A DNA stretch of 63,826 nucleotides, the filler included, from Bradymonadales bacterium (GTDB lineage: Bacteria; Bdellovibrionota; UBA2394): NCBI GenBank assembly GCA_007693605.1. It is 6 parts of 5 records of this genome, joined end to end, with 100 filler letters (N's around TTAATTAATTAA, not from the genome) between each part and the next. Parts side by side here need not be neighbours in the genome. Positions count along the whole stretch, not along the records: positions 2,143 to 23,371 come from REDG01000045.1; 5 more parts are not named here. One strand, 5' to 3'. Positions 929 to 23,232 of the stretch are shown piece after piece (position 1 is the first letter of the stretch; the number at the start of each line of letters is the position of its first letter). Made by a program: the position numbers and the translations under genes. The notes under the pieces are model-generated. The model was not told where the DNA came from. It saw nothing but the letters and a program-made list of their open reading frames with translations, and did not search any database.

Positions 929-956
929 TCGCACAAAAGCTGCGCTGGAGGACCAG

Positions 957-1214: not shown

Positions 1215-1348
1215 AGTTCCAGAAATGTCTAGTCAGCCCTCAATCCCAGAAGCCGAATCTCAATGATTCAAGCAGCAAGCTTCAAACGAGCGGCTCCAAA
1301 CTCGGCTCTTATGGGGTGAGTCAATGCGTTAAATCATAAATTCTCTGG

Positions 1349-2042: not shown

Positions 2043-2142
2043 NNNNNNNNNNNNNNNNNNNNNNNNNNNNNNNNNNNNNNNNNNNNTTAATTAATTAANN
2101 NNNNNNNNNNNNNNNNNNNNNNNNNNNNNNNNNNNNNNNNNN
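2043..2142. other. Artificial contig spacer
   Basis: N-run/TTAATTAATTAA/N-run; stops in all six frames. Confidence 0.97.
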
Positions 2143-3321: not shown

Positions 3322-4272
3322 ATGAAGCCTATGGGGGGGCTCGATGTTTTTGCCCAATCGCTGTATCTCTTGATCGGCCTTGCTGCGGTTGGTTTCTTTT
3401 CGTTTCAGCTGGTGAAGCTCATCATGCCAGATCAAGAGCTTTTGGCCGCTCAGGCCCGTTTGGGGGTAGAGAGCGCAAACCGAAACTATCGGCACTGGAG
3501 CTTGCGACTCTTGGCCCCTTTCTTTCGGTCCATGCTGCCCAGAATCCAGCAGTTCAAGATTCCTCTCTACCGACAAAAGAAGAAAAAGCTCTTTGTGGTG
3601 GCCGGGGTAGATGATCAATTTAATCCGGACGAGTTTATTGGCCTGAAATTTTGTGCGTCTGTTTCAGCGCTGCTGATTATCTACATCTTTTTCTTAAATG
3701 CAGGCTGGGTGTTTGACCTGTCGTGGGTCGGACTGAGTCTTGTTTTGGGATTTTTCTTGCCGGACTATGTGGTTTGGGAGCTAAAGAGGAAGAGACAGCG
3801 CGCCATTATTCGAGAGCTTCCGAATGTCATGGACTTGTTGACCTTATCGGTGGAGGCGGGAATGGACTTCATGGCCGCCATCTCTCGCGTCATCGAGTTT
3901 TCAAAGCCCGGGCCTCTGAGAGAAGAGCTGAGCGTGGTTTTAAAAGAGATTCAGGTGGGGAGCACCAGGGCAGAGGCTCTTCGAAGCATGGCCGATCGGG
4001 TTGAACTTTCTCAGATTTCTTCGTTTGCTTCGATTTTGATTCAGGCAGACGAGATGGGTAGCAGTATTGGCCCGGTGCTTCGAGCCCAGAGCGATCTTCT
4101 TCGAAACGATCGATTTCAAAGGGCTGAAAGAGAGGGCGCCAAGGCAGCTCAGAAAATTCTGATTCCCTTGATTCTGTGTATCTTGCCTGCGGTCTTTATT
4201 GTGATTATGGGTCCGGTGATTTGTGATGTGTATTACAATCAACCTTGGCTTCGAGAGTTCTTCGGAGGCTAA
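3322..4272 (+). CDS. tadC: Tad pilus inner-membrane platform protein TadC (T2SS F domain)
   Basis: IIRELPNVMDLLTLSVEAGMDF...LIQADEMGSSIGPVLRAQS...AEREGAKAAQKILIPLILCILPAVFIVIMGP. Confidence 0.9.
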   Translation: MKPMGGLDVFAQSLYLLIGLAAVGFFSFQLVKLIMPDQELLAAQARLGVESANRNYRHWSLRLLAPFFRSMLPRIQQFKIPLYRQKKKKLFVVAGVDDQFNPDEFIGLKFCASVSALLIIYIFFLNAGWVFDLSWVGLSLVLGFFLPDYVVWELKRKRQRAIIRELPNVMDLLTLSVEAGMDFMAAISRVIEFSKPGPLREELSVVLKEIQVGSTRAEALRSMADRVELSQISSFASILIQADEMGSSIGPVLRAQSDLLRNDRFQRAEREGAKAAQKILIPLILCILPAVFIVIMGPVICDVYYNQPWLREFFGG

Positions 4273-4275
4273 GTC

Positions 4276-4641
4276 GTGTTGCAGGCGGACCATCAACAAA
4301 TTTTGGCCGGTCGAGTCGAGGTCTACTCTCGGCCCAAAGACCGACGCCAAGGGCTTTTGAAATTCAAGACGCCGCCGACGGACTTTGCCGCCATTTTTGT
4401 TTTGCCCTTATGGGGCTTCTTCCCGGCAGTGCACACCTTTGGAATGAAATATCCGATTCACATCTTGTATTGCGATTCAGATCGTAAGGTCAGAGAGCTC
4501 CGAGAATCCGTTGCTCCGAATCGCTTCATTTTACCTTGGAGAAAATTCTTTGGAGGCTATCGCTATCTGATTGAGTTGGTTGAGCCGAAGTGTTTGCCAG
4601 AGCTTGGGAGTGAACTCTCTTGGAAAGAGAGCGCAGAATGA
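4276..4641 (+). CDS. DUF192-family protein
   Basis: RRQGLL...VHTFGMKYPIHILYCD...YLIEL fits DUF192, a family often found next to tadC. Confidence 0.7.
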   Translation: MLQADHQQILAGRVEVYSRPKDRRQGLLKFKTPPTDFAAIFVLPLWGFFPAVHTFGMKYPIHILYCDSDRKVRELRESVAPNRFILPWRKFFGGYRYLIELVEPKCLPELGSELSWKESAE

Positions 4642-6167
4642 AGATTTTGTTTGTCAAAGGTCCAGAAGCTTTTGAGCCCATTGAACTAGATGAGTCGAAA
4701 GTCTATTGCATCGGGCGAGAGCCAGAGAAAGGCCAGGAGAATATCGCCATGAATTCTCCCGCACTTTCTCGAAATCACTTTCTGTTGAGCTGCAATGGCG
4801 GTGACTGGTGGATTGAGGACCTCAAGAGCTTCAACGGCATTCGAGTGAATCGAAAAAAGATTCTTCGGGCAAGATTATCGGAAGGCGATCAAATTGAAGC
4901 CGGAGAGTATCAGTTTCAATTTGGAGAAAATTCTCCAGAAGAGCCTGAGATTGAGACCGCCAATGAAACTTATGCCAAGCCAAAGGAGCTTACCGCCACA
5001 AGAAAAAAATACGAGCGAGCTCCAGTGCAAGAAGCAGCAGGAGCCTCGGATGCTGGCTCAGATAAAAAGATAAACAAGCTAAAGCTCTATTGGGCCCAAT
5101 TGGATTTTAAGTGGAAGTCGATGGGAGCGCTGGCTGTCCTAGGGATCTTGCTGCACTCTTTGGTTTGGATTCCCTTCCAGGCAATGGTGGAAAAAGATCT
5201 GCTGCGAGAAGCTTTGGAGGGGGGGCGGCTTTTGACGGAGCAGTTGGGGGACGAGTATCGCGCCTTTGATGAGGGCTCTCAGGCTCTGATAAACTGCGAA
5301 GCCTTTGCTCTTGGAAGCCAAAGCATACTTCAAGCATTTGTAGTGAATCGCCAGAGATCGGTTCTTTGTCCGACCGGTCAGGCAGCACCGATGGATTCGC
5401 TTTTAAGTCAGGCGCAACAATCGGAGCAATTTACAACAAACTGTCACCAACGCCTGGATGCTCTGGCGGGCGAGAGCTGTTGGATGGTGGACCCCATCCA
5501 CAAAAGGGGGGCCAGAACCGAGCTGATTGGTTTCTCGATGATCCATTTTTTCCCAGTGAGGGTGGGTGAAGCCCTTGAGGCCTATGATCGTTACCGCTGG
5601 CAAAGTTTTTTTCTGGTTCTTCTCTTGATGCTGATCTTTGGCTGGCTATGGAATGCGCAGTTAAAGAGACGGCTCGATTGGCTAAGTTCTGAAGTTCATT
5701 TGCTATTTGCCGGCACTCTGCAAAATTTGGAAAAGCTTGAATCTTTTGCGGCCTTCGACAAGCTGATCGACGAAGTGAACCGGATCAATTCTAAGTCAAA
5801 TCAGGTACTTAGCCAACAAGACCCTGGGGGTCACGGGGGGGCAGACTTCTTGCAGTCCTTATTGGAGCAGGTGTTACTGCTTGAAGAAAGGGCCGTGATG
5901 GTTGTGGATCGAGAAAATCAAATACTAGCGGTTTCTCCCTCCCTTCCGGAGCTTATTCCCCTTCAAGAGGGCTATCTCGGATCTCATCTGATGGATGGAA
6001 TTGGAGATACTCACTTACAGGGTGAATTGGTCGGATTTCTGAACGAACTTTCAATGGGTTCAGATGTCTTAGACCAAAACCTTTCTCTGTCTGATCGGGT
6101 TGTCTCAGTACGAGGCATGCCGATCTATCAAGACGGAGAACAGGTTGCGAGCTTGTTGATCTTTTAG
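4638..6167 (+). CDS. FHA-domain membrane protein (FHA, TM, periplasmic domain, TM, HAMP/PAS-like cytoplasmic tail)
   Basis: IGRE...SRNH...DLKSFNG FHA motif and two hydrophobic segments. ATG 4638 overlaps the DUF192 stop (ATGA). Confidence 0.8.
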   Translation: MKILFVKGPEAFEPIELDESKVYCIGREPEKGQENIAMNSPALSRNHFLLSCNGGDWWIEDLKSFNGIRVNRKKILRARLSEGDQIEAGEYQFQFGENSPEEPEIETANETYAKPKELTATRKKYERAPVQEAAGASDAGSDKKINKLKLYWAQLDFKWKSMGALAVLGILLHSLVWIPFQAMVEKDLLREALEGGRLLTEQLGDEYRAFDEGSQALINCEAFALGSQSILQAFVVNRQRSVLCPTGQAAPMDSLLSQAQQSEQFTTNCHQRLDALAGESCWMVDPIHKRGARTELIGFSMIHFFPVRVGEALEAYDRYRWQSFFLVLLLMLIFGWLWNAQLKRRLDWLSSEVHLLFAGTLQNLEKLESFAAFDKLIDEVNRINSKSNQVLSQQDPGGHGGADFLQSLLEQVLLLEERAVMVVDRENQILAVSPSLPELIPLQEGYLGSHLMDGIGDTHLQGELVGFLNELSMGSDVLDQNLSLSDRVVSVRGMPIYQDGEQVASLLIF

Positions 6168-6217
6168 ATCTCTCTTCTTCTTCAGCAGAAATCACCGGAA
6201 GCACAAGGAGAAGTGAG

Positions 6218-7147
6218 ATGACAGGTCCCTCTCGAAAATCGCTAACGGATTCTCTTTTTGAGACGAATTATCAGAGCAAGGTCGCGGCCGAACTTTGGCT
6301 GAACATTGGCGGCAAAGAGTATCGTCTTGTCGGCAAGAAGATAAAAATTGGACGAGCCGTCGACAACGACATTGTGCTTGAGCACAAGAGCTGTTCTCGC
6401 TATCACGCCATGATTCGAGTCGAGAACAATCGAGTCATTCTGGAGGATTTAAAGAGCCGAAACGGCGTCAGAGTGAACGGCACGCCGATTGTTCGGGTAG
6501 AGCTTCAAGAAAACGCTGAGATTCAAGTGGGCGACTTGCCCGGGCTCTTTTATCAAAGACAGAAGGCCACTCAAAAGACCAATCGAGAGGTCACGGCAGC
6601 AGGAATTCTTTCGCCCGACATATCAGTCGCGGCCGGTCAACTTGAGAGACTGGGTCTTTCGGAACGATTTCAGGCTCTTCCAAAAGCCCTTCGTCTGTCG
6701 TTGATTGCACTCGTTCCTCTTTTCATGTTTGGAGTTTTGATTCTCTCTCAGAACAATTCATCGATGGGAACCCAGGCTGTAGAGTCATCCACCCCTCTCT
6801 TTTCTCTCACAGAATCCGATATTATACAGGCCGTTGTGCCCAGAACGGAGTTCGAGAACTGTCGAGTGGAAGAGGACCTCGGAAACTTCCGTCGCGCACG
6901 ATCTTGTTTGGAGGCCCTGCCTTTGACGGAAGAAGTGTTTATGACGCTTCGACGAGTGATCGAGCGGCAGCACAATCTTTCCATGCAGAGATACAAAGAA
7001 GGCGAGATGGCTCTGAAAAACAAATACTATGATTTGGCCATTCTGAAGCTTCAAGAAGTTCTCTTGATTGCCGATGAAAGCTCAGAGTTTCTGAGTAAGA
7101 TTCCCCGAATGATTGAAGAGGCGAAAGAAGGAAAGCGACTGCTGTGA
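6218..7147 (+). CDS. FHA-domain protein with one TM and a TPR-like C-terminus
   Basis: KIGRAVDND...SCSRYHA...DLKSRNGV; TM LSLIALVPLFMFGVLIL; C-terminal RYKEGEMALKNKYYDLAILKLQEVL. RBS AAGGAG. Confidence 0.82.
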   Translation: MTGPSRKSLTDSLFETNYQSKVAAELWLNIGGKEYRLVGKKIKIGRAVDNDIVLEHKSCSRYHAMIRVENNRVILEDLKSRNGVRVNGTPIVRVELQENAEIQVGDLPGLFYQRQKATQKTNREVTAAGILSPDISVAAGQLERLGLSERFQALPKALRLSLIALVPLFMFGVLILSQNNSSMGTQAVESSTPLFSLTESDIIQAVVPRTEFENCRVEEDLGNFRRARSCLEALPLTEEVFMTLRRVIERQHNLSMQRYKEGEMALKNKYYDLAILKLQEVLLIADESSEFLSKIPRMIEEAKEGKRLL

Positions 7148-9651
7148 GTGGTAAAGACTCATTTTTAGAACTCATCGGCTTAGACTCCGATGAGTTGGCA
7201 AAATCAGAGGCTTCGTCTTCGACGAAGACATCGTCTGTGACGGTGAAAGATATTGCTTTCGAGTCAGATCCCGATTCCGGCGAAGTGACGCAGCTCGATT
7301 CCTTTCAAGAAGACTCCTTTGCTGAGAGCCTTAGAAAGGAAGTCGAGGAGGCTGAGTTGAACCAAGACGAAGCCCCAGAATCGGACGACGAGGAAACAGT
7401 GAGTGAAGAGGCTTCTCAGTCGTTTAGTCAAGCCAGCTTCGTTGAAGATATTCTTGAAGAAAAGACGGAGCTCTTTTCTTCAGATGAAAAGCCCTTTGAG
7501 CCACAAGATCTGTATGCCGATGAGCTAGAGAATGCGAACACTCACTTTCGTTCTGGAAATTCTGAACCAAATCCCCAAGACGAAGAAGATTCTCGGACCG
7601 GTCTTCTGACAAAAGAAGACGCCTTGTTAGAGGGTTTGGAAGAGGCCGAGTATTCGAGAGCGACGGATTTGTTTGTTGTAAAGTCGAAGGCGGAGGGTGA
7701 GGAAGAAGCCCGTAAGACCGAGGCCATTTTGGGGGCGCTCGAAGAATTTGATGATCCTGCCGAAGACCCCCTAGAGGAGCTCTTAAGTGAAGAGTCGGCC
7801 TCTCAATCGACGAAGAGCATCTTGTATGAAGCGGAAGAAGCTCCACAGCAAAGAAGCTTTGTAGAGGGACGGGACTCGGTTTTTGAGCCCACGATTGAGC
7901 TGGAGGCAAGCTCTGGTTCTGCCAACGCAACGATCGCAAGCGCAAGATCAGAAGACACCGGTCGCCAGACCATGGCCTTTCAGTACCAGGACGAATCCGA
8001 AGCTTACGGAAGAATCATTGTCTTAGAAGGCGGGGCCAATCTCGACGAGTTAATTTTCCAAGAATTTCCTATCCGAGTCGGCAGGGGCTCTGAGAATGAT
8101 CTGATTTTAGAGGACGACAACTCAAGTCGATTTCATTGTGAGTTTCAAGATCGTGAGGGCGAGCTCTGGGTACAAGATCTTGGCAGCACCAACGGTCTCA
8201 AAGTGAACGGAGCTTTGACGACAGAGCACAAAATTGAGCACGGCGATTTGATTCAAATCGGAGAGGTTTTGATCGAATTTGTTGCGGCGGGCGAGTCTCC
8301 CCAAGGCGGGCGAGCGGCGACCCAGGAAGCACGAACTCAGATTGGAAAATCAAATCGAAGAGTTAAGAAGAAAAGGCTGAGATTGGTGATGACGGCCGGA
8401 GCCTTTTTGATTGCGGCGGGGCTTTTCGCTTGGTCTCAAATGGGGGGTTTCGATCTACAAAGAGTGACGACAGAGTATCTTGCGACGAATTTGAAAGAAG
8501 AGATGTTTTCACTTCAGAGAGAATTTCCGGAGGCTTCGTTTGAAAGTCTTCAGGCTGAAGATCTCAAAGTTCGGGCTTTAGAAAGAGCAAGGGCCCATCC
8601 GGTATTGAATCAGGTTGTGGATCGGCTCGAAACTTTTCCTGCTGATTATTTTGTTTTGTTTCTTTCTGACCCAGAGGCCTTAGAAGCCTTTGTGGCGACC
8701 GGAGGCGATTCAGGCGTTTTAATGGCTAGCCTTCGATCGCAACTGAACGGAGCCATTCATCGCCGAGAGAGACAGCAAGCGGGACGATTGTTTCAATTGT
8801 GGCGAATGATCGAGCCCGAGAATTCAGAGCGAGATCGGTTGCAGTCAGACTTTGAGGCTGAGTTTCGATTTGTCGAGACTCCAGAGGCTCCGGTGGTCAC
8901 TCAAGAAGAGAAAGATTTCGTATTGGGAATTCTGCGACAGCATCAAGAAACCTATGAGGAGCTTCTTCGCAATCAGCAGTTTGCGACGGCAGCGGATATG
9001 GCAGAAGATGTGATCTCTCGAATTCTTCAAGTGATTCGAGATTTTCCGCACTATGCCGACTTTGCTGAGCCTATGATTGCAAACTGGAAAGCAAAGTCGG
9101 CTCAAGCCAAGAGACAGCAAGAAGCCAAGGAGCAAGAGCGGCAAGAGTTTCAAGAGGTACTGGTTGAGGGCCGGTCTTCCCTTCGACAGGTTCGAGCATT
9201 GATGGATGAGGGGCGAGCCTATGAGGCCAAGCAAATGATCGAGAGTTTTCTATCTGAATTTGAAGAACACCCCGATCGATCTATTGCCGAAGATTATCGT
9301 CGACAAATTCAAGAGGTGATTGACCAGACATTCAGAGCCTTAAGGCGAGAAATTGAAGGGCATATTCGAACTCAAAACTTCGGTCTCGCCTGGGAGAGGG
9401 TTTATACTTATCTCGATCAACTACCAAAGCACTCGGGGGCTTTGGAGTTGCGGCAAGAGCTATTGAAGGTGACTTATAATCGGGCCAGACAGTTTTACAA
9501 TCAGGGCCGTGTCTTTGAGTTCGAGGCCGACGATTTAATTTCAGCCGAGCAATATTATAAGAGGACTTTAGAGGCAGCAGACCCTCGAGGGGAACTCGCC
9601 GCTCGGGCCCATCGCCGTTATAACGAGGTTTTGAGAAAGAAGCTGCAGTAA
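7144..9651 (+). CDS. FHA-domain protein with long acidic N-terminus, TM and helical/TPR-like periplasmic domain
   Basis: VGRGSEND...SSRFHC...DLGSTNG; TM after KKKRLR; GTGA overlap with the upstream gene. Confidence 0.82.
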   Translation: MSGKDSFLELIGLDSDELAKSEASSSTKTSSVTVKDIAFESDPDSGEVTQLDSFQEDSFAESLRKEVEEAELNQDEAPESDDEETVSEEASQSFSQASFVEDILEEKTELFSSDEKPFEPQDLYADELENANTHFRSGNSEPNPQDEEDSRTGLLTKEDALLEGLEEAEYSRATDLFVVKSKAEGEEEARKTEAILGALEEFDDPAEDPLEELLSEESASQSTKSILYEAEEAPQQRSFVEGRDSVFEPTIELEASSGSANATIASARSEDTGRQTMAFQYQDESEAYGRIIVLEGGANLDELIFQEFPIRVGRGSENDLILEDDNSSRFHCEFQDREGELWVQDLGSTNGLKVNGALTTEHKIEHGDLIQIGEVLIEFVAAGESPQGGRAATQEARTQIGKSNRRVKKKRLRLVMTAGAFLIAAGLFAWSQMGGFDLQRVTTEYLATNLKEEMFSLQREFPEASFESLQAEDLKVRALERARAHPVLNQVVDRLETFPADYFVLFLSDPEALEAFVATGGDSGVLMASLRSQLNGAIHRRERQQAGRLFQLWRMIEPENSERDRLQSDFEAEFRFVETPEAPVVTQEEKDFVLGILRQHQETYEELLRNQQFATAADMAEDVISRILQVIRDFPHYADFAEPMIANWKAKSAQAKRQQEAKEQERQEFQEVLVEGRSSLRQVRALMDEGRAYEAKQMIESFLSEFEEHPDRSIAEDYRRQIQEVIDQTFRALRREIEGHIRTQNFGLAWERVYTYLDQLPKHSGALELRQELLKVTYNRARQFYNQGRVFEFEADDLISAEQYYKRTLEAADPRGELAARAHRRYNEVLRKKLQ

Positions 9652-9675
9652 GCTCTCCTCTCATGAACCCCCCAT

Positions 9676-9799
9676 GGGAGTGTCGCTAAGGGCCCATCTG
9701 CTTCGGCGGCTCCGTCGCTGCGCTTCTCGAGTGGCATTTTAACCACACTGCGATGCTCGCTTCTTGCCTTCTCGCATCTGAACCCTTATCGCGACTCCC
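9676..9799. repeat. ~125-bp MITE/REP-like intergenic element, copy 1
   Basis: Imperfect terminal inverted repeats GGGAGTGTCGCTAAGGG / CCCTTATCGCGACTCCC. The core recurs near-identically at 54254-54303. Confidence 0.7.
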
Positions 9800-10057
9800 G
9801 AATCGAGAGTTTGGAGACAAGCCGCTCAAGCCGAGAGGAATGCGAGCGTTCCGGGATCGCGCTAGTCTGGCACTTTCGTCTCCCGACCCCAACCTGCTAT
9901 GCAATTTGTTTCGTAGTTTCAGAGGGGAAATACGCTGAAATCTGCACAGCAAGAGGCTTTGCGAGCCTGTGGAAAGAGGGCCCTCTTGCAAATAACTGAA
10001 AATACTAGGTTTTTTCAGCCCCTGTGGAAGACTATTCACAGCGCGGGCTGTCAAAGC

Positions 10058-10074
10058 GAGGCATCAAAATTGCA
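10058..10074 (+). promoter_or_regulatory. Putative sigma54 (-24/-12) promoter
   Basis: GAGGCATCAAAATTGCA gives GG-N10-GC with TTGCA. It is followed by RBS GGAGA and ATG 10105. Confidence 0.5.
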
Positions 10075-10104
10075 ACAAATTTTGTCATGTCTGGAGAAAA
10101 GCTC

Positions 10105-11610
10105 ATGCGAAGGCGCAAAGACAGAATTCAGATCAGTGATTTGATGCCCAAGGCCTCTCTGCCCATATTGATGATGGCGACTTTGGTCTTGAGTGCTTGT
10201 GATCCGGAGGAGCAAGAATCTACTTTTGCTCAGGGGGAACTCACGCCCGGAAACTCTAGTGTCGAGACTCAGAGAAGGCAAGCAGACATTGTTCGCGGGC
10301 TTGAAGACAACCGAGCGGGTCATCGTCTACAGGAAATTGCAGCAACGGGAGAGCAGGATCGAATGCGAGCGGAAATTGCACGCGATCAAGCGGTCGCAAA
10401 GGCAGAAATTAGAGGCGATGCGGATAGACATGTCTCCGACAATGATCGACTGGCACGAGAGAGTACGGCGAAAACGGCGGCGGATGCGCGCAAAAAAGAG
10501 GCAATATACCATTCACTCGCTGGTGGTGCTGAGGCGGTCCTTGGGGTCGTCGCTGGTCATCTGGATGGTAACACCAGAAAAGAAATTGCTAGAATTCAGG
10601 CCACGGCTGGTGCAGAAGCCATGGCAAAGAGACAGGAAATCGCTGAGCTTGAGCAGGATATTCGTGACTTAGATGCCAACATCGACAAGCAAGAGGATCT
10701 AGAGAGAACGGTGGCACAACTTCGGCCTGGGATGGAGAAGGCTGACTATGACCGAGTTCTTGATCGGGCAAGCCAGTCAGGTCTCATTTCTTTGGAAGAT
10801 CGAGACGAATTGGAATCATGGCGAGGTTTGGATCCGGGAGCTTTTGAAAGCGCCAAGCGAGCCGCTAGTCAGGAGTTTACTCGTCGGATTCGTGAACGAC
10901 AGGCGCAAAGAGAAGGTCTTGTGCAAGCCTACGAGAAGCTGACTGGTAGGGATCTAAGAGAAAGGCAAAGCTTAGAAGATGGAATTCCAGTCTTTCCCCC
11001 TCCACAAGCGCCGGGTGATACCGAAAGTTTTGTACCCAGTGCTGAACAAAATCAAAGTCCACTTTGTCAACGGGCTGAAGGCCAAGCCGGATCTGTTGAT
11101 GAGGCTTGTCGGGAACTAAATAATAATTTTGAGAAGATGGCGAAGAACGCGAATACTTTAATCAAGAATAGTAAACTAGGCACTCCGCAGCAAAATTTTC
11201 CGAAGGCAAAAGGTGGGTTACTAGAAGCGCTTCAAACACAGAAAGAAGCACTTAAGAAAATGAATACAGATGATGATCCAGAGAAAATGAATACAGATGA
11301 TGATCCAGCCATGAATTCTCGGATTGCTGGGGCTATTGCCGCGATTAATCAAGAAATTAAAACGGTCCGCGCTATCGAAGCGCTTAAGGATTTTCAAAGT
11401 CACCTGGGTTCATCTGGTGAATACTACCAGAGTATTCTTTCTAGATATCAAAGTCAAGATGATGTTGTGGCCATCATTGAGGATAGGAATGGGGTTTCGA
11501 TGTATCAAGTGGCTGGAATATCGTCACCACATCCTGAGAATTATAGTATTGAAGGGATCTCTCCTGTTAACCCGAGCTCGTTTTACTGTCCTCTAGGAAG
11601 CAACTGCTAG
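10105..11610 (+). CDS. Orphan coiled-coil lipoprotein
   Basis: Basic N-terminus, hydrophobic stretch and lipobox LVLSA-C. Start moved from 10024 to ATG 10105 because of the RBS and promoter. Confidence 0.7.
   Translation: MRRRKDRIQISDLMPKASLPILMMATLVLSACDPEEQESTFAQGELTPGNSSVETQRRQADIVRGLEDNRAGHRLQEIAATGEQDRMRAEIARDQAVAKAEIRGDADRHVSDNDRLARESTAKTAADARKKEAIYHSLAGGAEAVLGVVAGHLDGNTRKEIARIQATAGAEAMAKRQEIAELEQDIRDLDANIDKQEDLERTVAQLRPGMEKADYDRVLDRASQSGLISLEDRDELESWRGLDPGAFESAKRAASQEFTRRIRERQAQREGLVQAYEKLTGRDLRERQSLEDGIPVFPPPQAPGDTESFVPSAEQNQSPLCQRAEGQAGSVDEACRELNNNFEKMAKNANTLIKNSKLGTPQQNFPKAKGGLLEALQTQKEALKKMNTDDDPEKMNTDDDPAMNSRIAGAIAAINQEIKTVRAIEALKDFQSHLGSSGEYYQSILSRYQSQDDVVAIIEDRNGVSMYQVAGISSPHPENYSIEGISPVNPSSFYCPLGSNC
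11255..11308 (+). repeat. Perfect in-frame 27-nt tandem duplication
   Basis: AGAAAATGAATACAGATGATGATCCAG x2, encoding KMNTDDDP(E/A). Confidence 0.95.
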
Positions 11611-11727
11611 TTGAGATTCAACGACTCAAGTCTCTTTCGATTGGCATCATTCCCAGTCTTTAGACATAGCTAAACTTTTCATAGGGGCTCTGTAGTCCGC
11701 ATTAAATCAATAGCTGCGGGTAAGTTT

Positions 11728-11744
11728 TTGGAACGAAGTTTGCA
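11728..11744 (+). promoter_or_regulatory. Putative sigma54 (-24/-12) promoter for the flp/tad operon
   Basis: TTGGAACGAAGTTTGCA gives TGG-N10-GC, close to the consensus TGGCACGnnnnTTGCA. Confidence 0.55.
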
Positions 11745-11758
11745 ATAGATGGGGGTGT

Positions 11759-11989
11759 ATGAAGAGTCTTCGAAATAGAGACATTCTGAAGCGAAACTCG
11801 AAGCGAGCACAGACCTTGATTGAATACAGCCTACTTATTCTTGTGCTGATTCTACCCTTGGCCTTTTCTCTTCGAGAGCTTCTTCAGGATTCTCAAGAAG
11901 ACTCTCCAGACAACTTGATCTACCAAGCCACCACCACGAGCTTTGGCGATCGAGAGCGATTTGGAACGGTGGGCCGACCCTACCCCTAA
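11759..11989 (+). CDS. flp: Flp-type (type IVb/c) pilin
   Basis: Basic leader, KRA|QTLIEY, then a hydrophobic helix; 76 aa. Confidence 0.8.
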   Translation: MKSLRNRDILKRNSKRAQTLIEYSLLILVLILPLAFSLRELLQDSQEDSPDNLIYQATTTSFGDRERFGTVGRPYP

Positions 11990-12037
11990 ATCAACAAAAG
12001 AAAATGAAAAGACCAATAAACGAAGGAGAAATCTCAA

Positions 12038-12256
12038 ATGAAACGAATCAACGGAATTCTTAATCGACTCAATCGAAGAAAAGGCCTGAAGGCTCAAACC
12101 GCCCTCGAGTACGCTCTCGTTGTGGGTGCTATTTCTTTGGTTCTCATGTTCGCCTGGAACCAAGTCGGCGATACGGTCCGAAACGCCATTATGGGCGATA
12201 TGCAAGACCGAATTGAACAAAACCTAACCAGAGGAAACGCAACAGTAGAGAGGTAA
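12038..12256 (+). CDS. flp: Flp-type pilin, probable major subunit
   Basis: LKA|QTALEYALVVGAISLVL; strong RBS AAGGAG; followed by two hairpins. Confidence 0.88.
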   Translation: MKRINGILNRLNRRKGLKAQTALEYALVVGAISLVLMFAWNQVGDTVRNAIMGDMQDRIEQNLTRGNATVER

Positions 12257-12300
12257 TTCTACCTCTACTGCAGCGATAGCTCAGAGGTGAAAGCACCTCT
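12243..12300 (+). terminator. Two stem-loops after the second flp (mRNA-stabilising or partial terminator)
   Basis: CAGTAGAG...CTCTACTG (12243-12270) and AGAGGTG-AAAG-CACCTCT (12283-12300); no clear U-tract. Confidence 0.45.
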
Positions 12301-12312
12301 ATAAAGTTTGCT

Positions 12313-13044
12313 GTGAAAAGACGACTCCTTCGTCAGGCAAAGAGACGAAAGCCGCTTCGAGGCCAAACGGTGGTGGAGACGGCTTTCGTCTTTACTTTAA
12401 TGCTCTTTCTCGCGCTTGCCGCGGTGAATCTGGGCACGACCGCCCACACCAACTTTATTGCGAACTACGCCGGATTTATGGCCGCTCGAAGTTTTCAGGT
12501 TTATGGCGTCGGCACGGGCGCAGACTTTTTTGACGAGGCGGATTTTGGCCAACTTCTCGATTCAGAAGTGACGGCCACCACCATTCGAGTGGCAGAAGAT
12601 ATTTTTACCTGCTCCCTTCCCTGGGTGTCTCCGCCTGACAACGACATCATCAACCCCGGAGATGATTCTCAGACATTTTCAAGATGCCATGAAGGCAATC
12701 GGCGTTACGAAAACACTAACATTGATCGTCGCTTTCGAGTTCTTCGCTTTGATCAACAGCAAAGAACAGAGTTTGAAGAAGTGGCCAGCTCCTACCGAGA
12801 AGAAGATCGGGCTCCGCTTCGCTACGGGATTCTTAGACTAAGATACAAACGAAGCCTTTTGCTCAACCCCTTTGGAATTTTTGACGGAATGAGAAATATT
12901 GATGGCGAACAAGTTTTTGTAGACGACGAGTTTCGAACTCGAATGTGGCACAGTCTTCATGTACCACTTCTGTTGAACCCCGGACTTGACACCGGCGAGC
13001 TTCGACAGGCTCAAGGTCAAGACTCCACGGTGGAGGATCAATAG
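12313..13044 (+). CDS. TadE-like minor pilin
   Basis: LRG|QTVVETAFVFTLMLFL...ANYAGFMAARS. Confidence 0.78.
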   Translation: MKRRLLRQAKRRKPLRGQTVVETAFVFTLMLFLALAAVNLGTTAHTNFIANYAGFMAARSFQVYGVGTGADFFDEADFGQLLDSEVTATTIRVAEDIFTCSLPWVSPPDNDIINPGDDSQTFSRCHEGNRRYENTNIDRRFRVLRFDQQQRTEFEEVASSYREEDRAPLRYGILRLRYKRSLLLNPFGIFDGMRNIDGEQVFVDDEFRTRMWHSLHVPLLLNPGLDTGELRQAQGQDSTVEDQ

Positions 13045-13045
13045 A

Positions 13046-14311
13046 ATGAAGGCCTATCTTTTTCACACTAGACAAAGAGGCCAGCGAGCGGTGGCGATGG
13101 TTTTCTTCTTGCTCGTTTTTGGTTTGACCTTGAGTTTTACGATGGTCGTTTTTAATACGGGCCTTATTGTCCATCAGAAAATTCGGCTGCAAACAGCAAC
13201 CGACCTAGCGGCCTACGCGGGGGCTAGTGTTCAAGCTTCTTATCTTGGCAATGAAAGTTCTGGACAAGAATCTCTGACGGCCATCAACGATCGAATCGTG
13301 CGCCGTTATATTCGCTTGCTTGAAGAGATCAACGATCATCCCAATCGAGTGATTCCCGCTCCTCCCATTATTCCTGCGAGTCAGGCCGCTTGTATGGCCG
13401 CCTGTGCTGCGGCAAATCTCGCCGTGGCAAATCGGGCGCTATCCATCTATCGACGGGCCCTCTCTGATATCGATGAAGAACACATCCGCGTTCGCCGAAT
13501 GTTAGAGCAGCTTCCTTCAGCGATTCGAGAAGCCATGGAAACAACCGTGGCTTTAAATATTCCTGAACTCAGCTTAGAAGACGGCCCCTTTGGTGGTGCG
13601 ACCAACGACCTCACAGAAATCATCGACCAGCCCCTACAGAATTTTTCAGCAGATCCACGAAACATCAATCTCTCGTTTCACTCGGACAAGGCCTTCTATC
13701 TCGCCAATATCGTGGCGGGCGTTCCGCATCGCTTGGTGTATTTTGGTCCGAACTGCGCGAATATGAATCGAGGCCTCGATCGACCTCCCGTCTATTACTG
13801 TACCGTCAACGGCCAAGGCGGCCAGGGGACAGCAATGGGATTTCAGGCGGCTGTCTCTGCTTTGGCGCTTGCCATGAACGGGATTGGAAATTTGGGAAGT
13901 CTAGAATCCATCGCATCCCCCAACTCGAGAGCCATCAAGCTTCAGTTTATTGAAGACCCCCATCGCCCCAGCCCCTTTGTGGTGGCTGCGACGGAATGGT
14001 TTCCAAAAACCGGAGGCCTCATGAATCTCGAAAAAAGCTTTGGTGCGCGCGGCAAGTTGATTCCAGACCACACCCGACTAGGCGCAATTTCAGCAGCTGA
14101 ACCTTTTGGGGGCTATCTGGCCAATCAGCAGGTACTTCCATTTGGAGTGAGGCTTCAAGCGATTCGAAAACTTCTTCTCGACCCGAGAATGTTGGCCGCT
14201 CGCGAAGATTTTGGAGGTCTCTACGATTATATGGAATATGTCGGACCCAAAGATGAGCGAGGAGAGAGCATCGAGAGTGCTGAAGAAACGATTTTAAGAT
14301 TTCTTCACTAA
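13046..14311 (+). CDS. TadG-like (Tad domain) minor pilin
   Basis: QRG|QRAVAMVFFLLVFG...NTGLIVHQKIRLQTATDLAAYAGA is a Tad N-terminal signature. Start set at ATG 13046. Confidence 0.78.
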   Translation: MKAYLFHTRQRGQRAVAMVFFLLVFGLTLSFTMVVFNTGLIVHQKIRLQTATDLAAYAGASVQASYLGNESSGQESLTAINDRIVRRYIRLLEEINDHPNRVIPAPPIIPASQAACMAACAAANLAVANRALSIYRRALSDIDEEHIRVRRMLEQLPSAIREAMETTVALNIPELSLEDGPFGGATNDLTEIIDQPLQNFSADPRNINLSFHSDKAFYLANIVAGVPHRLVYFGPNCANMNRGLDRPPVYYCTVNGQGGQGTAMGFQAAVSALALAMNGIGNLGSLESIASPNSRAIKLQFIEDPHRPSPFVVAATEWFPKTGGLMNLEKSFGARGKLIPDHTRLGAISAAEPFGGYLANQQVLPFGVRLQAIRKLLLDPRMLAAREDFGGLYDYMEYVGPKDERGESIESAEETILRFLH

Positions 14312-14336
14312 GAGTTTTGAGTCGGTTGCGAGTGTT

Positions 14337-17414: not shown

Positions 17415-17515
17415 CGCAAGTCGCCATGAGATTTCGGGAACTTGTAGATTCTTCGGCATCGAATCAATCGTGTCTGAGCGAGTAAAATAAAACTGCGAGG
17501 AACTGAACAAAAGTC

Positions 17516-18382
17516 ATGGAAAATCGTCGAGCGATTATATGGTCCGTTTCAGCCGCCATTGTGGCTGCCTTCGCCTATTACTTGGCGGTGAACAAAGCTG
17601 TGGATAACCGAATTGGTGATCTTGATCGAACGGTGAATGTTTTAGTCGCTCGAAGAGATATCCCTCGAGATGCAGAGATTGATCAAAGCATGTTAGAGCG
17701 CAGAGCCTTTCCGATCGCCTTTGCTCACGACGAAATGGCCAGGACTGAGAGAGAAGTCGTGGGCCAAGTCGCATTGGCCACCTTTCGAGCGGGAGAGCCA
17801 ATCTTTCGAAACAAGCTAGTGCCCGCTGATGAAGTGGCCATTAACAGAAGAATTCCAGAGGGGCATCGGGCGGTTTCAATCGGTATTCGCGATCCACAAG
17901 ATGTGATCGGTGTGGGCGGGCTTCTGAGACCAGGTCATTTTGTGGATATCTTGGTCACCATGTTCGTGAACACCCAAGAGATCGAATCAGGCGATCGATC
18001 AGCGCAAATCATCATTGACGAGGCCAGGCGCTTAAAGGCTGAAACTCGCACGATCTTTCAGAATGTTCGAATATTATCAGTGGGTAGAGATTTTCGATTG
18101 GAAACGGCGAATGTCAGTCGCGCTCAGGGCCCAGGCTTTCAGTCTTCGCAGCAAACCAATATCACGGTGGCTCTGCCGCCGGCAGATGTTCAGAAGTTGG
18201 TATTGGCTCAACAAGTGGGTCAGATCATGATCGCTCTTCGTCGATTCAACGAAACTGAAATTGTGGATCTCGATTTCTTGGATCCGTTTAGGGCCTTTGG
18301 AATTCAGTTGCCAGTCGTCTCGGGGCCGCCGCCCGCTTATCGAGAAATCAGGGGAGGACAAGTTGTTGCAGCACCATTCTAA
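17516..18382 (+). CDS. cpaB: Flp pilus assembly protein CpaB/RcpC
   Basis: VLVARRDIP (SAF domain)...IPEGHRAVSI...GVGGLLRPGHFVDILVT...FQNVRILSVG. Confidence 0.92.
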   Translation: MENRRAIIWSVSAAIVAAFAYYLAVNKAVDNRIGDLDRTVNVLVARRDIPRDAEIDQSMLERRAFPIAFAHDEMARTEREVVGQVALATFRAGEPIFRNKLVPADEVAINRRIPEGHRAVSIGIRDPQDVIGVGGLLRPGHFVDILVTMFVNTQEIESGDRSAQIIIDEARRLKAETRTIFQNVRILSVGRDFRLETANVSRAQGPGFQSSQQTNITVALPPADVQKLVLAQQVGQIMIALRRFNETEIVDLDFLDPFRAFGIQLPVVSGPPPAYREIRGGQVVAAPF

Positions 18383-19934
18383 AATTTGCCGAATTCTCAT
18401 TTGCGCCGGAAGTTTAATTCTTTTGGGGCCCGCTCTTCAGCAGCCTGCAAATGCCCAGACCGATGTGATTGTCGAAGATCGAAGGCCCGCCCGAGGCTCT
18501 CAGATTCGGCAGCGAGAGTTGTTGTTGGTTCGAGATGTGCCGCGCACTCTTGAGTTTGACTATGATATTGGAGAGATCGCCATCGGAAATCCACAGATTT
18601 CTTCAGTAGTCGTGGACCGACCAAGACGCCGAATGGTTTTGAGCCCTCTCACACCCGGAGAAACAGCTCTCTTGGTTTTTGACACCAGAGGAGTTCAAAG
18701 AGACGCGGTTCAACTGGTCGTGACATCAACCGATCTAGATCAGTTTATTCGAGACCTGGGCTTCACCTTTCGCGACATCGAAGGTCTGACTTCTCGGCGA
18801 GTCGGAAATCGAATTGTACTGGAAGGCGAGGTCTATCTTCAGTCCGATATGGAACGAATTCAAGAAGTCTTGAGAGGAAATGACTTTGTAGTGAATCTTG
18901 TTACTTTGTCTCAAGACACTCAAAGAATTCTGGCGAGAAGAATTCGTGACGAGATTAATATCTCGGGCGTTCAAGTCGACACGGTTCGAGATCGCATTGT
19001 TCTGAAAGGCGAAGTCTCATCAGATCAAGAAAAAGAAAGGGCCGAGCAGATTGCTCGAATCTATGTCAGTGGAGATCGGCTCGTGAATGTGATTGCGGTC
19101 AATCCCGACCGAAGATCGGCTCGACCCGCACGCCTCATTCAAGTCTCAGCCCATTTTGTAGAACTCAACAAATCCTTTCTTCGGTACTTCAATTTCTCTT
19201 GGACGCCCATCACCAGCGTTTCTGCAACGACGGCCTTTCCCAGAGGTTTGACAGCTTCTGGAAGAAGCTTTGATCTCTTTGCGGTGGTCACAGACTTTTT
19301 GCCCCGCCTCGATACGGCCAAAGCTCTGGGTGTTGCGAGGGTTTTTGAGAACCCCACGATTTCTGTGAAAAGTGGCGACGCCGCATCCATTCAGTCGGGG
19401 GGCTCTTTGATTTTGCCGATCACTTCGCCCAATTTGTCTAGTCCGGCATTTTCTGAGCCGATCAATATCGGGGTGACTCTTAATGTGACTCCGACTGCCG
19501 ATGAAAGGGATTTTGTCGATATGCAAGTGGGCGTGGAGGTCTCAAGTTTGGGTAGTTCACCCAGAGGGACGGCCGCAGGGGATGGGGTTCTTTTGAACAC
19601 CTCTTCCGTTTCAACCACTCACTATGTTCGAACCGGAGAGACGGTGGCCCTGGGTGGGGTGATGCGGTCGGCTTTCACCGATGTGAGAGATGCGCCCCCA
19701 AATGCTCCCTTTACTTCGGGTTTCAATCCGAGCGTGCAGCTAGAGAGTAGTGTAGGAAATTTGTTTCAAGTCTTTAAGAATCGATCGATCACTGCCGACC
19801 GGTCTATGTTTATTGTCTTTATCACTCCTGAAGTTTTGGTCTCTGCGAGAGAGGCTTCAAGAAGTCTAAGGGAGCAAATGAATTTACGAGGGGTGAGAGC
19901 TTTTGAGCTCGATGAGATAGACGAGTTGAATTAA
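18363..19934 (+). CDS. cpaC: Tad secretin CpaC/RcpA with pilus-formation N-domain and BON-like domains
   Basis: IAIGNPQI...GETALLVFD...IQVSAHFVELNK...ENPTISVKSGDAASIQSGG...VFITPEVL. TTG start follows GGAGGA. Confidence 0.88.
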   Translation: MLQHHSKICRILICAGSLILLGPALQQPANAQTDVIVEDRRPARGSQIRQRELLLVRDVPRTLEFDYDIGEIAIGNPQISSVVVDRPRRRMVLSPLTPGETALLVFDTRGVQRDAVQLVVTSTDLDQFIRDLGFTFRDIEGLTSRRVGNRIVLEGEVYLQSDMERIQEVLRGNDFVVNLVTLSQDTQRILARRIRDEINISGVQVDTVRDRIVLKGEVSSDQEKERAEQIARIYVSGDRLVNVIAVNPDRRSARPARLIQVSAHFVELNKSFLRYFNFSWTPITSVSATTAFPRGLTASGRSFDLFAVVTDFLPRLDTAKALGVARVFENPTISVKSGDAASIQSGGSLILPITSPNLSSPAFSEPINIGVTLNVTPTADERDFVDMQVGVEVSSLGSSPRGTAAGDGVLLNTSSVSTTHYVRTGETVALGGVMRSAFTDVRDAPPNAPFTSGFNPSVQLESSVGNLFQVFKNRSITADRSMFIVFITPEVLVSAREASRSLREQMNLRGVRAFELDEIDELN

Positions 19935-19936
19935 AA

Positions 19937-22342
19937 ATGGGTATTTTGATAGCAGTCACAGGCGGAAAAGACGGGGTGGGGAAAACCACCCTTTCTCTGC
20001 ATTTGGCCTACAGCTTACTGAAGAATGCGAAGCAGCGCACTTGTTTGATCGAGGCCGACCCATACAATTTCGGCGATCTCTCCGTTCTGTTGGCAAGCAA
20101 GCAGATCAAGAGCTTTACCGACTTTTGTTCTCAGGTAGGTCGAATGGACTCTCGCCTGGCTGCGAATTGGGCCGGGGCTCATCCCACAGGCTTAAGCCTT
20201 ATGTCGGCTGCCAACTTTCCGAAAGACTTTCAGAACCTTGAAGATGAGAATGTCATCAAGGCTCTTCAGCTGCTCAAGAGGGCATTCGATGTGGTGGTGA
20301 TTGATGCTGGTCGAGACATCAACCCTTTGAGTTTCAGGGTCTTTGAAAATTCTGATTTGATTTTCTTGGTGACCGACGCTGACATCATTTCAGCCAACCG
20401 GACTGGGGAGCTTCTGAAAAATCTTCGTTCTCTTCATTTCGGAAATGAATCTTTCCGAGTGATTATCAATCGATTTGAGCAGAAGTCTGTGGTGAACCCG
20501 AGCACACTGAAACAAAAGTTCAATCTAGATGCGAAGATTCTTTTGCCGACGGATTCGGCAGGGCTTCAGCAGAGTGTTTCAATGGCCAGGCCGCTTCATG
20601 CCATCAATCCGAAGTCTCCATATCTGATTGGCCTCGACCAGGCTCTTCGGGCCGTCCATCCCTTCTTGCAGGGAGGGTCTTCGGGGACGGTGGTGACGGG
20701 AAAGAATCAGTCCCTTGAGGTCTTGAATTCTCTTCTCCCGTTTCGGGCGGCGGGGGCCGGCGCGTCTTTAGAGGTTCCGGCAAGAGGTTCGATTCCCGAT
20801 CCCATCAAAGAGAGAAATCTCAGAATTCGAACCCGAGTGCACGAAAGACTTCTTGAGTTGGTCGATCTTCGAGAAATGGATCCTCTTGAGCTTGAGAGAG
20901 ATCCCAAAAAGAAGGAGGAGTTGAAGTCTAAAACCGTGCAGGCCATTCATCAGTTGCTAGAACAAGAGGCAAAAGATGTGTCGGATCGACAGGAGAGAGC
21001 CCTTCTTGCACAAGAGTTGGTAGATGAGGCTCTGGGCCTAGGCCCGATCGAGGCTCTTCTTCGCAGCGAGTCGGTTAGCGAGATCATGGTGAACGGCAAA
21101 GATATGATTTATGTCGAGCAGAACGGAAAGCTCACTCTGTCTGATCTTTATTTTACGGGCGACAAGCAGCTATTGGGTTGTATCGAGAGAATTCTGATGC
21201 CCATTGGAAGACGGGTGGACGAGAAAACTCCCCTGGCAGACGGTCGTTTAAGAGACGGTTCTCGTATCAATGTCATCATTCCTCCCCTAGCCCTTTCAGG
21301 GCCAACTTTGACCATTCGAAAGTTCTTCAAAGAAAAACTTCAAGTGGAGGATCTCGTTCGTTTTGGAAGCTTGACCGACGAGATGGGAGATTTTCTTCGG
21401 GCTGCCGTCGAGGCCAAGTTAAATGTTGTGGTTAGCGGGGGTACGGGTACTGGTAAGACGACTCTGTTGAATTTGGTCTCGGGCTTCATTCCAAACGACG
21501 AGAGAATTGTGACGGTAGAAGACGCGGCAGAACTTCAACTGCCTCAAGATCATGTCATTACCCTAGAGACGAAGCCCGCGAATTTGCAGGGCGAAGGCTC
21601 GATTAGCATACGAGATCTCGTGCGAAACTCGCTTCGAATGAGGCCCGATCGAATTGTGGTCGGAGAGTGTCGAGGTGGCGAAGCCTTGGATATGCTTCAA
21701 GCGATGAATACAGGGCACGACGGATCCTTAACCACCGTTCATGCGAACAATCCCAGAGATTGCTTGAGGCGACTCGAGACTCTGGTGATGATGGCAGGTT
21801 TTGATTTGCCGATGGTCGCGATTCGTGAACAGATTGCTTCGGCAGTGAATCTCATTGTTCAGCTTCGTCGGTATAGTGATGGGACTCGAAAAATCAGTCA
21901 TATCACTGAGGTCATGGGTCTGGAGGGCGAGACCATGGTGACTCAGCCCATTTTTGAGTTTAAGCAGACGGGCACCAACGAAAAAGGAAAGGTGATTGGA
22001 AACTTCCAGCCCTCTGGTTTGATTCCGAAGTTCGTCGAGTCTCTCAAGGCGAAGGGAATCTCTTTGCCGAAAGGGCTCTTTGGGGGAGGGGCTTTGCCCA
22101 ATCGATCTTCAGATCGATCAAGTTCTTCTGAAACCAAGCAGTTGAGCCAATCGGATTCGAAGTCCAAAACAGAGGCGGCCACTCCAGAAGCCCCCATGGC
22201 TCGAAAGCCTGTGGGTTCAAGTAAAGACGAAGCGAATCTCTCAAGGTCGAGCCCATCGAGAGGCTTTCGGCCCCCTGCACCCGTTAAGAAAAACCCAGCA
22301 CGAATTCCGACTCGAAATCCTCACGGGGGGAAGAAGCCGTGA
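19937..22342 (+). CDS. cpaF: Fused CpaE/TadZ (MinD-like) and CpaF/TadA ATPase
   Basis: N-terminal GGKDGVGKTT and FDVVVIDAG; C-terminal SGGTGTGKTT, LRMRPDRIVVGECRG and AMNTGHDG. Confidence 0.92.
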   Translation: MGILIAVTGGKDGVGKTTLSLHLAYSLLKNAKQRTCLIEADPYNFGDLSVLLASKQIKSFTDFCSQVGRMDSRLAANWAGAHPTGLSLMSAANFPKDFQNLEDENVIKALQLLKRAFDVVVIDAGRDINPLSFRVFENSDLIFLVTDADIISANRTGELLKNLRSLHFGNESFRVIINRFEQKSVVNPSTLKQKFNLDAKILLPTDSAGLQQSVSMARPLHAINPKSPYLIGLDQALRAVHPFLQGGSSGTVVTGKNQSLEVLNSLLPFRAAGAGASLEVPARGSIPDPIKERNLRIRTRVHERLLELVDLREMDPLELERDPKKKEELKSKTVQAIHQLLEQEAKDVSDRQERALLAQELVDEALGLGPIEALLRSESVSEIMVNGKDMIYVEQNGKLTLSDLYFTGDKQLLGCIERILMPIGRRVDEKTPLADGRLRDGSRINVIIPPLALSGPTLTIRKFFKEKLQVEDLVRFGSLTDEMGDFLRAAVEAKLNVVVSGGTGTGKTTLLNLVSGFIPNDERIVTVEDAAELQLPQDHVITLETKPANLQGEGSISIRDLVRNSLRMRPDRIVVGECRGGEALDMLQAMNTGHDGSLTTVHANNPRDCLRRLETLVMMAGFDLPMVAIREQIASAVNLIVQLRRYSDGTRKISHITEVMGLEGETMVTQPIFEFKQTGTNEKGKVIGNFQPSGLIPKFVESLKAKGISLPKGLFGGGALPNRSSDRSSSSETKQLSQSDSKSKTEAATPEAPMARKPVGSSKDEANLSRSSPSRGFRPPAPVKKNPARIPTRNPHGGKKP

Positions 22343-23232
22343 GTGTCGCGGGCTTTCAAAGCTTAGGTCTGATGTCTGTCGGCCTGAGTGTCGTTTTTAT
22401 ATTTGTATTTTGGTTCATTTACTCACGATATTCCGAGTGGGAGACGAAGGCGCGCGAGGGAATGTCTGACTACGCAGCCGAGCTCTACGATTTGTTTGAT
22501 CGAATGTTCATGCGCCAAAACTTGAATCGCTGTTACAGTTTGATCATCATTTCAACGGCGGTGGCGGGCTTTGTTGGATTTAGTATCGGCCTGAGTGTTT
22601 CTCTTTTTTTCGGAGTGATTGCTGCCGCCCTTGGAGGGATGCTGGGCTTTCGACTTCCTGGGCTGATTGTTAAGGCTATGTTTCAGAGGCGGCTTTCGAA
22701 ATTCAATCTTCAGTTGATTGATGCCTTAAATATGATGTCTAATGCGATTCGATCAGGACTTTCGTTTATGCAAGTGATTCAGATTCTGGAGGCGGAGTTG
22801 GATGACCCGGCCTCTCAGGAGTTTTCAATGGTTTTGAAAGAGAATCGAGTCGGGGTGAATTTGAACGACGCACTTTTGAATATGACGAATCGAGTGCCCT
22901 CTGAAGACCTTTTTATGATCATCAATTCGGTCGTGACGCTCTCTCAGCAAGGGGGAGATCTCTCGGAAGCATTTGATACGATTGCGCACACCATTCGAGA
23001 GCGGCAAAGAGTCGCCTCCAAAATTCGAACGATGGCTCAGGCTGGAATGACCCAAGCCACGATTTTGGGGATTCTTCCCTTTGTGATGATGGGGCTACTT
23101 TATTTTGTGCAACCCGACTCAATGGTTCTGCTTTTCACGACTCCCTTAGGTCTTGGGATGGTCATCGTGATGCTAACGCTGATTGGCCTAGGGGTCTTCT
23201 GGATGAAGAAAATTCTGACGATTGATGTCTAA
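22339..23232 (+). CDS. tadB: Tad pilus platform protein TadB
   Basis: FNLQLIDALNMMSNAIRSGLS...QQGGDLSEAFDTIAHTIRER...IRTMAQAG. Confidence 0.9.
   Translation: MSVAGFQSLGLMSVGLSVVFIFVFWFIYSRYSEWETKAREGMSDYAAELYDLFDRMFMRQNLNRCYSLIIISTAVAGFVGFSIGLSVSLFFGVIAAALGGMLGFRLPGLIVKAMFQRRLSKFNLQLIDALNMMSNAIRSGLSFMQVIQILEAELDDPASQEFSMVLKENRVGVNLNDALLNMTNRVPSEDLFMIINSVVTLSQQGGDLSEAFDTIAHTIRERQRVASKIRTMAQAGMTQATILGILPFVMMGLLYFVQPDSMVLLFTTPLGLGMVIVMLTLIGLGVFWMKKILTIDV

Follow-up and report, generated by a model that had tools for sequence, protein, structure and literature searches.

The window, a 63,826-nucleotide stretch of the Bradymonadales bacterium assembly GCA_007693605.1, carries at 3322-23232 a Tad pilus locus which, by sequence comparison, is an orthologue of the Bdellovibrio Tad machine and a member of its clade, not a Myxococcus Kil system. 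On balance, it appears to encode a Bdellovibrio-type Tad pilus of a deep-branching family, likely gripping prey through a variable tip and switched by FHA-phosphothreonine recognition, a function we infer. Taken whole, the machine is a known one, and what is new is the tip pilin: this family has TadE, TadG and a pilin of about 1,000 residues where others have small minor pilins. The open reading frame (ORF) list and a Pfam scan yield 15 genes, all on the + strand, in the order first described and with tadC and tadB at opposite ends (Table 1). The Tad set of Flp, TadE/G, RcpA, RcpC, TadZ, TadA, TadB and TadC is complete within the locus.

Two trees of TadA, TadB and TadC place the locus. The first, with 813 columns and 61 taxa after three loci lacking tadB/C were dropped, supports the family at 1.0, Bdellovibrionota at 0.999, and their union with the group of FHA-fused motors that contains Kil at 0.988. 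The second, computed with IQ-TREE for 26 taxa with ultrafast bootstrap (UFBoot), gives 100 to each of these three groupings, sets five canonical proteobacterial systems outside them, and resolves the family as sister to all other sampled Bdellovibrionota (98).

The tadC end of the locus was compared with Bdellovibrio sp. HCB288, with HD100 numbers assigned to its genes from their order and lengths. In HCB288, tadC is followed by genes of 116, 543, 366, 671 and 225 residues, which match Bd0470-0475 by order and by the lengths given in the accessible part of PMC12034629. The tadC of the locus, the only copy in the genome, matches that of HCB288 at 40%. Alignment with hhalign gives 99.4% over 106 columns for the DUF192 protein against the gene in the same place in other Bdellovibrionota, 100% over 483 columns for FHA1 with the Bd0472-type set, and 99.9% over 465 columns for FHA3 with the Bd0474-type set. 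FHA2 aligns with the Bd0473-type proteins in its FHA domain alone, and its C-terminal part fits the Bd0474-type set better. The FHA domains retain the motifs GR, SxxH and NG, the meaning of which is presumed here.

The preliminary description had held that its FHA genes set the locus apart from canonical Tad loci, and this stands: all 29 selected Bdellovibrionota tadC loci have three FHA genes after tadC, and none of five canonical loci does. The outcome that would tell against that description, canonical grouping of the core proteins without co-occurring FHA genes, did not arise, since the core proteins group with Bdellovibrio, next with the Kil-containing clade and away from the five canonical systems, and the FHA genes co-occur in every selected locus. 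According to the accessible text of PMC6561027, Bdellovibrio mutants of Bd0470 and Bd0474 are unable to kill prey. The available portion of bioRxiv 10.64898/2026.07.08.737194 describes B. bacteriovorus as having TadZ fused to TadA, tadC next to FHA genes and a locus that lacks TadV; in that of PMC13200544, up to 81% of Bdellovibrionota genomes are said to carry a Kil-like system.

The typing of the locus as Kil-like, also part of the preliminary description, had to be dropped. Kil was represented by Citreicoccus inhibens instead of M. xanthus, taken as Kil by its FHA-fused motor and by its place, which we presume to be within the Myxococcaceae. A true Myxococcus-type Kil, assembling at contact sites with a needleless type III secretion system (T3SS*), would suit the sister position of the Kil-containing clade and the presence of tadG in the locus beside two further tip pilins, as in Kil cluster 2. 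It is nevertheless highly improbable, with three defining Kil features failing and with the window and Kil not forming a clade. The motor is fused to TadZ instead of FHA, the locus lacks a peptidase, and the secretin is long and has N-terminal domains, unlike KilC, which is short and devoid of an N0 domain in the accessible part of PMC8460266. The only FHIPEP match in the 90% complete genome lies inside the flagellar cluster, so that a second SctV/FlhA gene, and with it a T3SS* partner, was not found. Among 80 other TadA loci, 13 have an FHA-fused motor, with the Citreicoccus and Archangium loci serving as positive controls, and many of these loci carry non-predator labels; FHA beside Tad alone therefore does not imply predation.

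The giant pilin comprises a pilin helix and head (residues 15-240), glycine-rich, low-charge helical repeats (241-650) and a charged helical tail (651-1025). Its length across the family is 900-1,100 residues, and its profile matches 12 of 13 family genomes and none of 188 other genomes of the phylum. It lies between tadG and cpaB wherever both neighbours share its contig. In nine metagenome loci, at least three of which repeat genomes already counted, tadG stands directly 5' of it in all nine and cpaB 3' in all seven that reach that point. On one metagenome contig the gene occupies two overlapping frames (L172:530-955 and 894-3094), a break or an assembly error. Among 1.84 billion cluster representatives it has 46 matches, nearly all full-length (roughly 35) or fragments; a 1,802-residue protein matching the tail has no Pfam family. 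In the pilin helix the relatives' copies are 47-76% identical to it, a figure that drops to 11-41% in the tail, with TadG steady at 46-49%, and likeness to other pilins, those of Kil included, is confined to the pilin helix.

Residues 241-650 contain 21% Gly, 13% Ala, 10% Ser, 2% Lys/Arg and 5% Asp/Glu (7% charged), with a repeat of about 67 residues and about ten predicted helices of 23-32 residues. With 300 glycine-rich, low-charge windows, the protein ranks highest of the 2,298 ORFs of the genome, the runner-up having 206, and this trait is kept in all full-length homologues, with the sequence itself not kept. No Pfam family reached the cut-off for 10 members or for the three parts, and the PDB sequence search returned only coiled-coil rows at E >0.4. 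Atlas comparisons place TadE/TadG clusters at 0.88-0.90 for the head and an RTX row at 0.76, below lead level, for the middle.

The preliminary description had also counted two orphan cargo-like genes. They are not orphans: the giant gene is a family-wide pilin, and the lipoprotein gene fills a family-wide slot. A killing cargo is not supported, with Pfam revealing neither a toxin domain nor an enzyme domain. In seven relatives, flp is preceded by a lipobox protein of 559-1089 residues, with weak mutual likeness at the N-terminal end; between the window copy and the relatives' slot proteins there is no BLAST match, and no Pfam match was found. Its role might be pilotin-like or that of a tip chaperone, which is a guess. 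Immunity to a toxin was considered for this protein and finds no support: its gene is set four places away from that of the giant pilin, and no known domain was recognised in it.

Structure models of the tip were examined next to these sequence features. A complex of TadG, TadE and residues 15-245 of the giant pilin scores 0.81, against 0.22 for the best of three controls, on a scale whose mark is reached by 116 of 157 solved pairs and 2 of 215 mismatched pairs. At least 78% of contacts are shared between runs, partner values of the predicted local distance difference test (pLDDT) are at least 66, and the best contacts involve the three pilin helices. A TadE-TadG-giant pilin trimer at the pilus tip is thus predicted by the models, and the pass may reflect likeness to solved pilin-tip trimers. 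The prediction matches the Tip concept for M. xanthus, as presented in the accessible part of PMC12075869, with the one difference that TadG is not the largest subunit here. The full-length AlphaFold2 model of the giant pilin, with a pLDDT of 45, was unusable, and Foldseek on it gave no hit at E 0.001. A model of residues 234-660 (pLDDT 59, predicted template modelling score 0.51) forms a packed bundle of helical hairpins. Its fold search returned generic helical rows only, the best at Z 9.2 to SRP68, along with a row for the AhlB pore covering a 66-residue hairpin at Z 7.5. These rows neither show a new fold nor exclude an alpha-helical pore former such as the RTX N-terminal region or a glycine-zipper toxin.

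In the proposed mechanism, the single prepilin peptidase of the type IVa pilus cluster would mature the pilins, and the TadE-TadG-giant pilin trimer would prime assembly. TadZA, held at the pole via its TadZ part, would drive extension and retraction of the Flp fibre by way of TadB/TadC, RcpC and the secretin. Phosphothreonine signals of kinases encoded elsewhere would reach TadC via the three membrane FHA proteins and the DUF192 protein. The 780 residues past the head of the giant pilin would be displayed outermost as a variable prey-contact domain, the protein serving where other Bdellovibrionota use small TadE-like pilins. Predation is likely, judged from orthology.

The giant tip pilin could instead be a weapon, with glycine-rich, nearly uncharged hairpins inserting into the prey membrane when the pilus pushes. 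Such a pilus-borne pore or anchor would need no separate toxin system, consistent with no T3SS* partner having been found, and the composition, repeat and helices of residues 241-650, extreme within the genome and kept in homologues despite sequence change, lend it some appeal; Tip4 of M. xanthus is likewise proposed, in the available text of PMC12075869, to carry or recruit toxic activity. We nevertheless regard it as unlikely. Mean helix hydropathy is modest (0.1-1.3) and lower still in several relatives, the small residues could account for the modelled bundle without a membrane, and a hydrophobic cargo would have to cross the inner membrane and the secretin without inserting. The wider version, a pilin-fused membrane spear that would give Tad pili a new means of anchoring in or killing prey, mounted on an ancestral one-block machine between Kil and Bdellovibrio, is equally doubtful.

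Less probable again is a pilus that serves as an adhesin for a dependent cell which does not kill, living as an epibiont or attached to a host, with the giant tip as a host-recognition adhesin. It would agree with the small genomes of the family (2.1-3.0 Mb) and with chorismate synthase, found in 0 of 14 family genomes and in 14 of 14 controls; only one DacB-type peptidase was found in the genome, and Tad tips serve adhesion in many bacteria according to the accessible part of PMC12075869. Against it, the complete accessory set required for killing in Bdellovibrio is retained.

Several points weigh against the prey-gripping Bdellovibrio-type pilus that we favour. No family member is known to be cultured or shown preying, and function may differ since no branch of the Bdellovibrionota Tad tree lies deeper than this family. 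The auxotrophy fits a symbiont equally, and FHA-wired Tad motors occur in many lineages not known as predators (the 13 of 80 loci above). The single DacB-type peptidase and the failure to find HMG-CoA reductase, both in a 90% complete genome, also count here, as we take these enzymes to be markers of predation in Bdellovibrio. Finally, 86 of the 151 genomes surveyed for the joined layout were unscorable, and inner tree branches are weak (41-74).

The preliminary description saw both Bdellovibrio halves joined here, which is borne out, and treated the join as special, which is not. In the survey of tadC and tadB positions in 151 genomes of the phylum, with "joined" meaning tadC upstream of tadB on the same strand and less than 30 kb apart, 32 genomes in 14 of 25 families are joined. 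The two genes are split by more than 200 kb in 22 genomes of four families, near but rearranged in 3 and on different contigs, hence undecidable, in 86, with 8 not scored. Fifteen joined loci from other families (16 retrieved) have the identical order, with small TadE-like pilins. The joined state of the deepest branch and of most families makes an ancestral one-block form likely, with repeated break-up in Bdellovibrio and in other families; how often it was split is not fixed, given the unscorable genomes and weak inner branches. By this survey, the 'unusually dispersed' layout of Bdellovibrio would be derived, and a TadG-containing tip inside the locus, as in Kil, would be a feature that the deepest branch retains. 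Literature searches, with subscription journals mostly outside their reach, found no paper on a joined locus, nor on a glycine-rich or pore-forming Tad tip pilin.

The joint was checked against the assembly, with a 144-bp repeat lying between FHA3 and the lipoprotein gene. This repeat has 74 matches in the genome, 25 of them at least 100 bp long, and is absent from relatives' tad loci. An assembly error at this point would fit the public unitigs, which break at the repeat, ending at 9705 and 9863, with no unitig listed crossing it. Depth is nevertheless equal on either side (14.3 and 13.8), and six relatives without the repeat show the identical joint: G003, G005, G007 and G008 carry tadC through tadB on one contig, and G004 and G009 carry tadC into the pilin genes on one contig. 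A false join is therefore extremely improbable. In G012, the halves lie on separate contigs, and about 11 kb of other genes separate flp from tadE; this insert (L107:4009-14566) includes an M64 peptidase gene and a 1,454-residue gene without known identity. A second repeat family occurs at 54159-54306 of the window.

The apparatus had first been called self-contained, and it is not: a peptidase, a Bd0109-like gene and kinases lie elsewhere. The genome is 2.19 Mb and 90% complete, with 13 family relatives and then phylum-level kin only among those listed. The public data set that best covers this DNA bears the label soda lake metagenome and may be where it came from. Its sole A24 prepilin peptidase is on contig C32 in the type IVa pilus cluster. 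The Bd0109-type gene is on C11, the best match of the Bd0475 profile is an ordinary-looking PP2C on C42, and 9 protein-kinase matches are on other contigs; in relatives, unrelated genes follow tadB. Clusters for a flagellum, a type IVa pilus and type II secretion are present, together with a match to what we take to be the MglA motif. A dependent, probably predatory cell fits this gene content. The earlier view of a prey-contact or killing apparatus thus holds in part, with orthology to the Bdellovibrio machine pointing towards it, and its self-containment, Kil type and cargo unsupported.

Table 1. Features of the Tad locus, in window positions.
Feature	Position	Strand	Evidence
tadC (T2SSF), inner-membrane platform, Bd0470 equivalent, first gene of the Bdellovibrio-type tadC operon	3322..4272	+	PF00482
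DUF192 protein, Bd0471 equivalent	4276..4641	+	PF02643 E 6e-6, 26.8 bits, just under cut-off 27
FHA protein 1, Bd0472 equivalent, two predicted membrane helices (hydropathy), start probably ATG 4638	4620..6167	+	FHA E 8e-14
FHA protein 2, in the place of Bd0473, one predicted membrane helix	6218..7147	+	FHA E 1e-19
FHA protein 3, Bd0474 equivalent: acidic N-terminal region, FHA 310-373, membrane helix, helical periplasmic part	7144..9651	+	FHA E 5e-16
144-bp dispersed hairpin-forming repeat between both halves, outside the machine	9676..9819	.	genome-wide matches
Fast-evolving lipoprotein: lipobox, long helical N-terminal part, start probably ATG 10144	10024..11610	+	no Pfam match
Flp-type pilin 1, putatively adapter-like	11759..11989	+	AQ-x3-E motif, hydrophobic helix, weak class III signal match; conserved in relatives
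Flp pilin 2, likely major pilin	12038..12256	+	PF04964 (Flp_Fap) E 6e-7, below cut-off; 46-58% in relatives
TadE-like minor pilin, 243 residues, two invariant cysteines	12313..13044	+	PF07811, family alignment
TadG-like minor pilin, ~420 residues, four invariant cysteines, start probably ATG 13046	12986..14311	+	PF13400; family alignment, 46-49%
Giant minor pilin, 1,025 residues	14337..17414	+	no Pfam match
rcpC/cpaB	17516..18382	+	PF16976, SAF
rcpA/cpaC secretin, ~520 residues, pil_N and BON domains, true start probably downstream of 18261	18261..19934	+	PF00263, PF13629, PF04972
TadZA, 801 residues: ParA/MinD-like TadZ fused to TadA motor (T2SSE)	19937..22342	+	Pfam, motor motifs
tadB (T2SSF), inner-membrane platform	22339..23232	+	PF00482; one copy in genome

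The window joins parts of several contigs, and its positions 2143-23371 are the terminal part of contig C13, whose sequence runs out 139 bases beyond tadB. In every family locus seen, uvrA adjoins tadC divergently, and it is intact in the genome (924 residues). The window ORFs 2087-3265 and 1438-2094 are both cut by N spacers. A promoter and terminator scan of the locus gave chance level only. No RNA data set was listed as containing this DNA, and two RNA runs gave 0 reads, which does not bear on expression.

TadZA has a ParA-like domain from residue 4, with a deviant Walker A at 9, a Walker A at 501 and a Walker B at 574, and no receiver or FHA domain; full-length matches occur throughout the phylum. 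The fusion is not universal there, since TadZ and TadA are two ORFs in G065 (L152). In G018, a single 917-residue ORF joins TadA and TadB with the TadZ part shortened (L130:13625-16378), a candidate fusion or frameshift, and G116 (L151) has a tandem pair of cpaB copies. A second, stand-alone TadA of 386 residues (C19:51399-52559, E 2.5e-100) has no adjoining tad genes; it follows an 868-residue signal-peptide gene, with two FHA genes within 12 kb, and most relatives have similar second copies. Paralogous clusters at C38:7404-12335 and C52:232-10038 encode type IVa-like pilins of very large size (890-925 residues), with pilin-like genes of 715-829 residues after them, possibly a second giant tip protein set. 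Three consecutive FHA genes, two with double FHA, lie at C50:48477-51155 beside a penicillin-binding-protein-like gene and tatB/tatC.

For the step from prey contact to killing or invasion by Tad pili, tip pilins are the leading suspects in both Myxococcus and Bdellovibrio. Only one tip set occurs in this family, and its very large subunit, not described before, lends itself to cloning and testing in isolation.

Among known systems, canonical proteobacterial Tad/Cpa loci (five plasmid loci) share flp, rcpC, rcpA, tadZ, tadA, tadB, tadC and tadE/G with this locus, and differ in having tadB and tadC adjacent, TadZ and TadA separate, no FHA genes (0 of 5) and a separate clade. As far as the accessible parts of PMC8460266 and PMC12075869 describe them, Kil and the KilLMN Tips of M. 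xanthus resemble the locus in a Tad core with several FHA proteins, two Flp-type pilins nearby, and three minor pilins predicted as a tip with a large variable domain. Unlike Kil, no FHA-fused motor (KilF), short secretin (KilC), KilA peptidase or T3SS* was found, and a single tip set replaces four. The largest tip subunit is TadE-like, helical and glycine-rich here, whereas in Kil it is TadG/KilN with a beta scaffold.

For uncultured Bdellovibrionota, phylum-wide presence of such systems is already published in PMC13200544, whose accessible text is silent on joined halves and a giant tip pilin; its synteny figure or supplements may already show the joined locus. In other Bdellovibrionota, a 550-residue gene follows tadB, whereas here it lies on another contig; we take this gene to be of Bd0109 type. 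A Bdellovibrio-type Tad pilus would be expected to assemble at the pole in dependence on RomR and to be required for prey attachment and invasion. The locus resembles that of Bdellovibrio bacteriovorus in its clade, in a TadZA fusion without a receiver domain, in a tadC that stands apart from tadB, with DUF192 and three membrane FHA genes after it, in the order flp-minor pilins-rcpC-rcpA-tadZA-tadB, and in the lack of TadV. Unlike Bdellovibrio, it has a lipoprotein gene in place of the missing Bd0475-type sixth operon gene, and one FHA domain in FHA3 where Bd0474 has two. The two blocks of B. bacteriovorus contrast with one block here, with TadG inside, and its TadE-like pilins of 170-210 residues with a third tip pilin of 1,025 residues.

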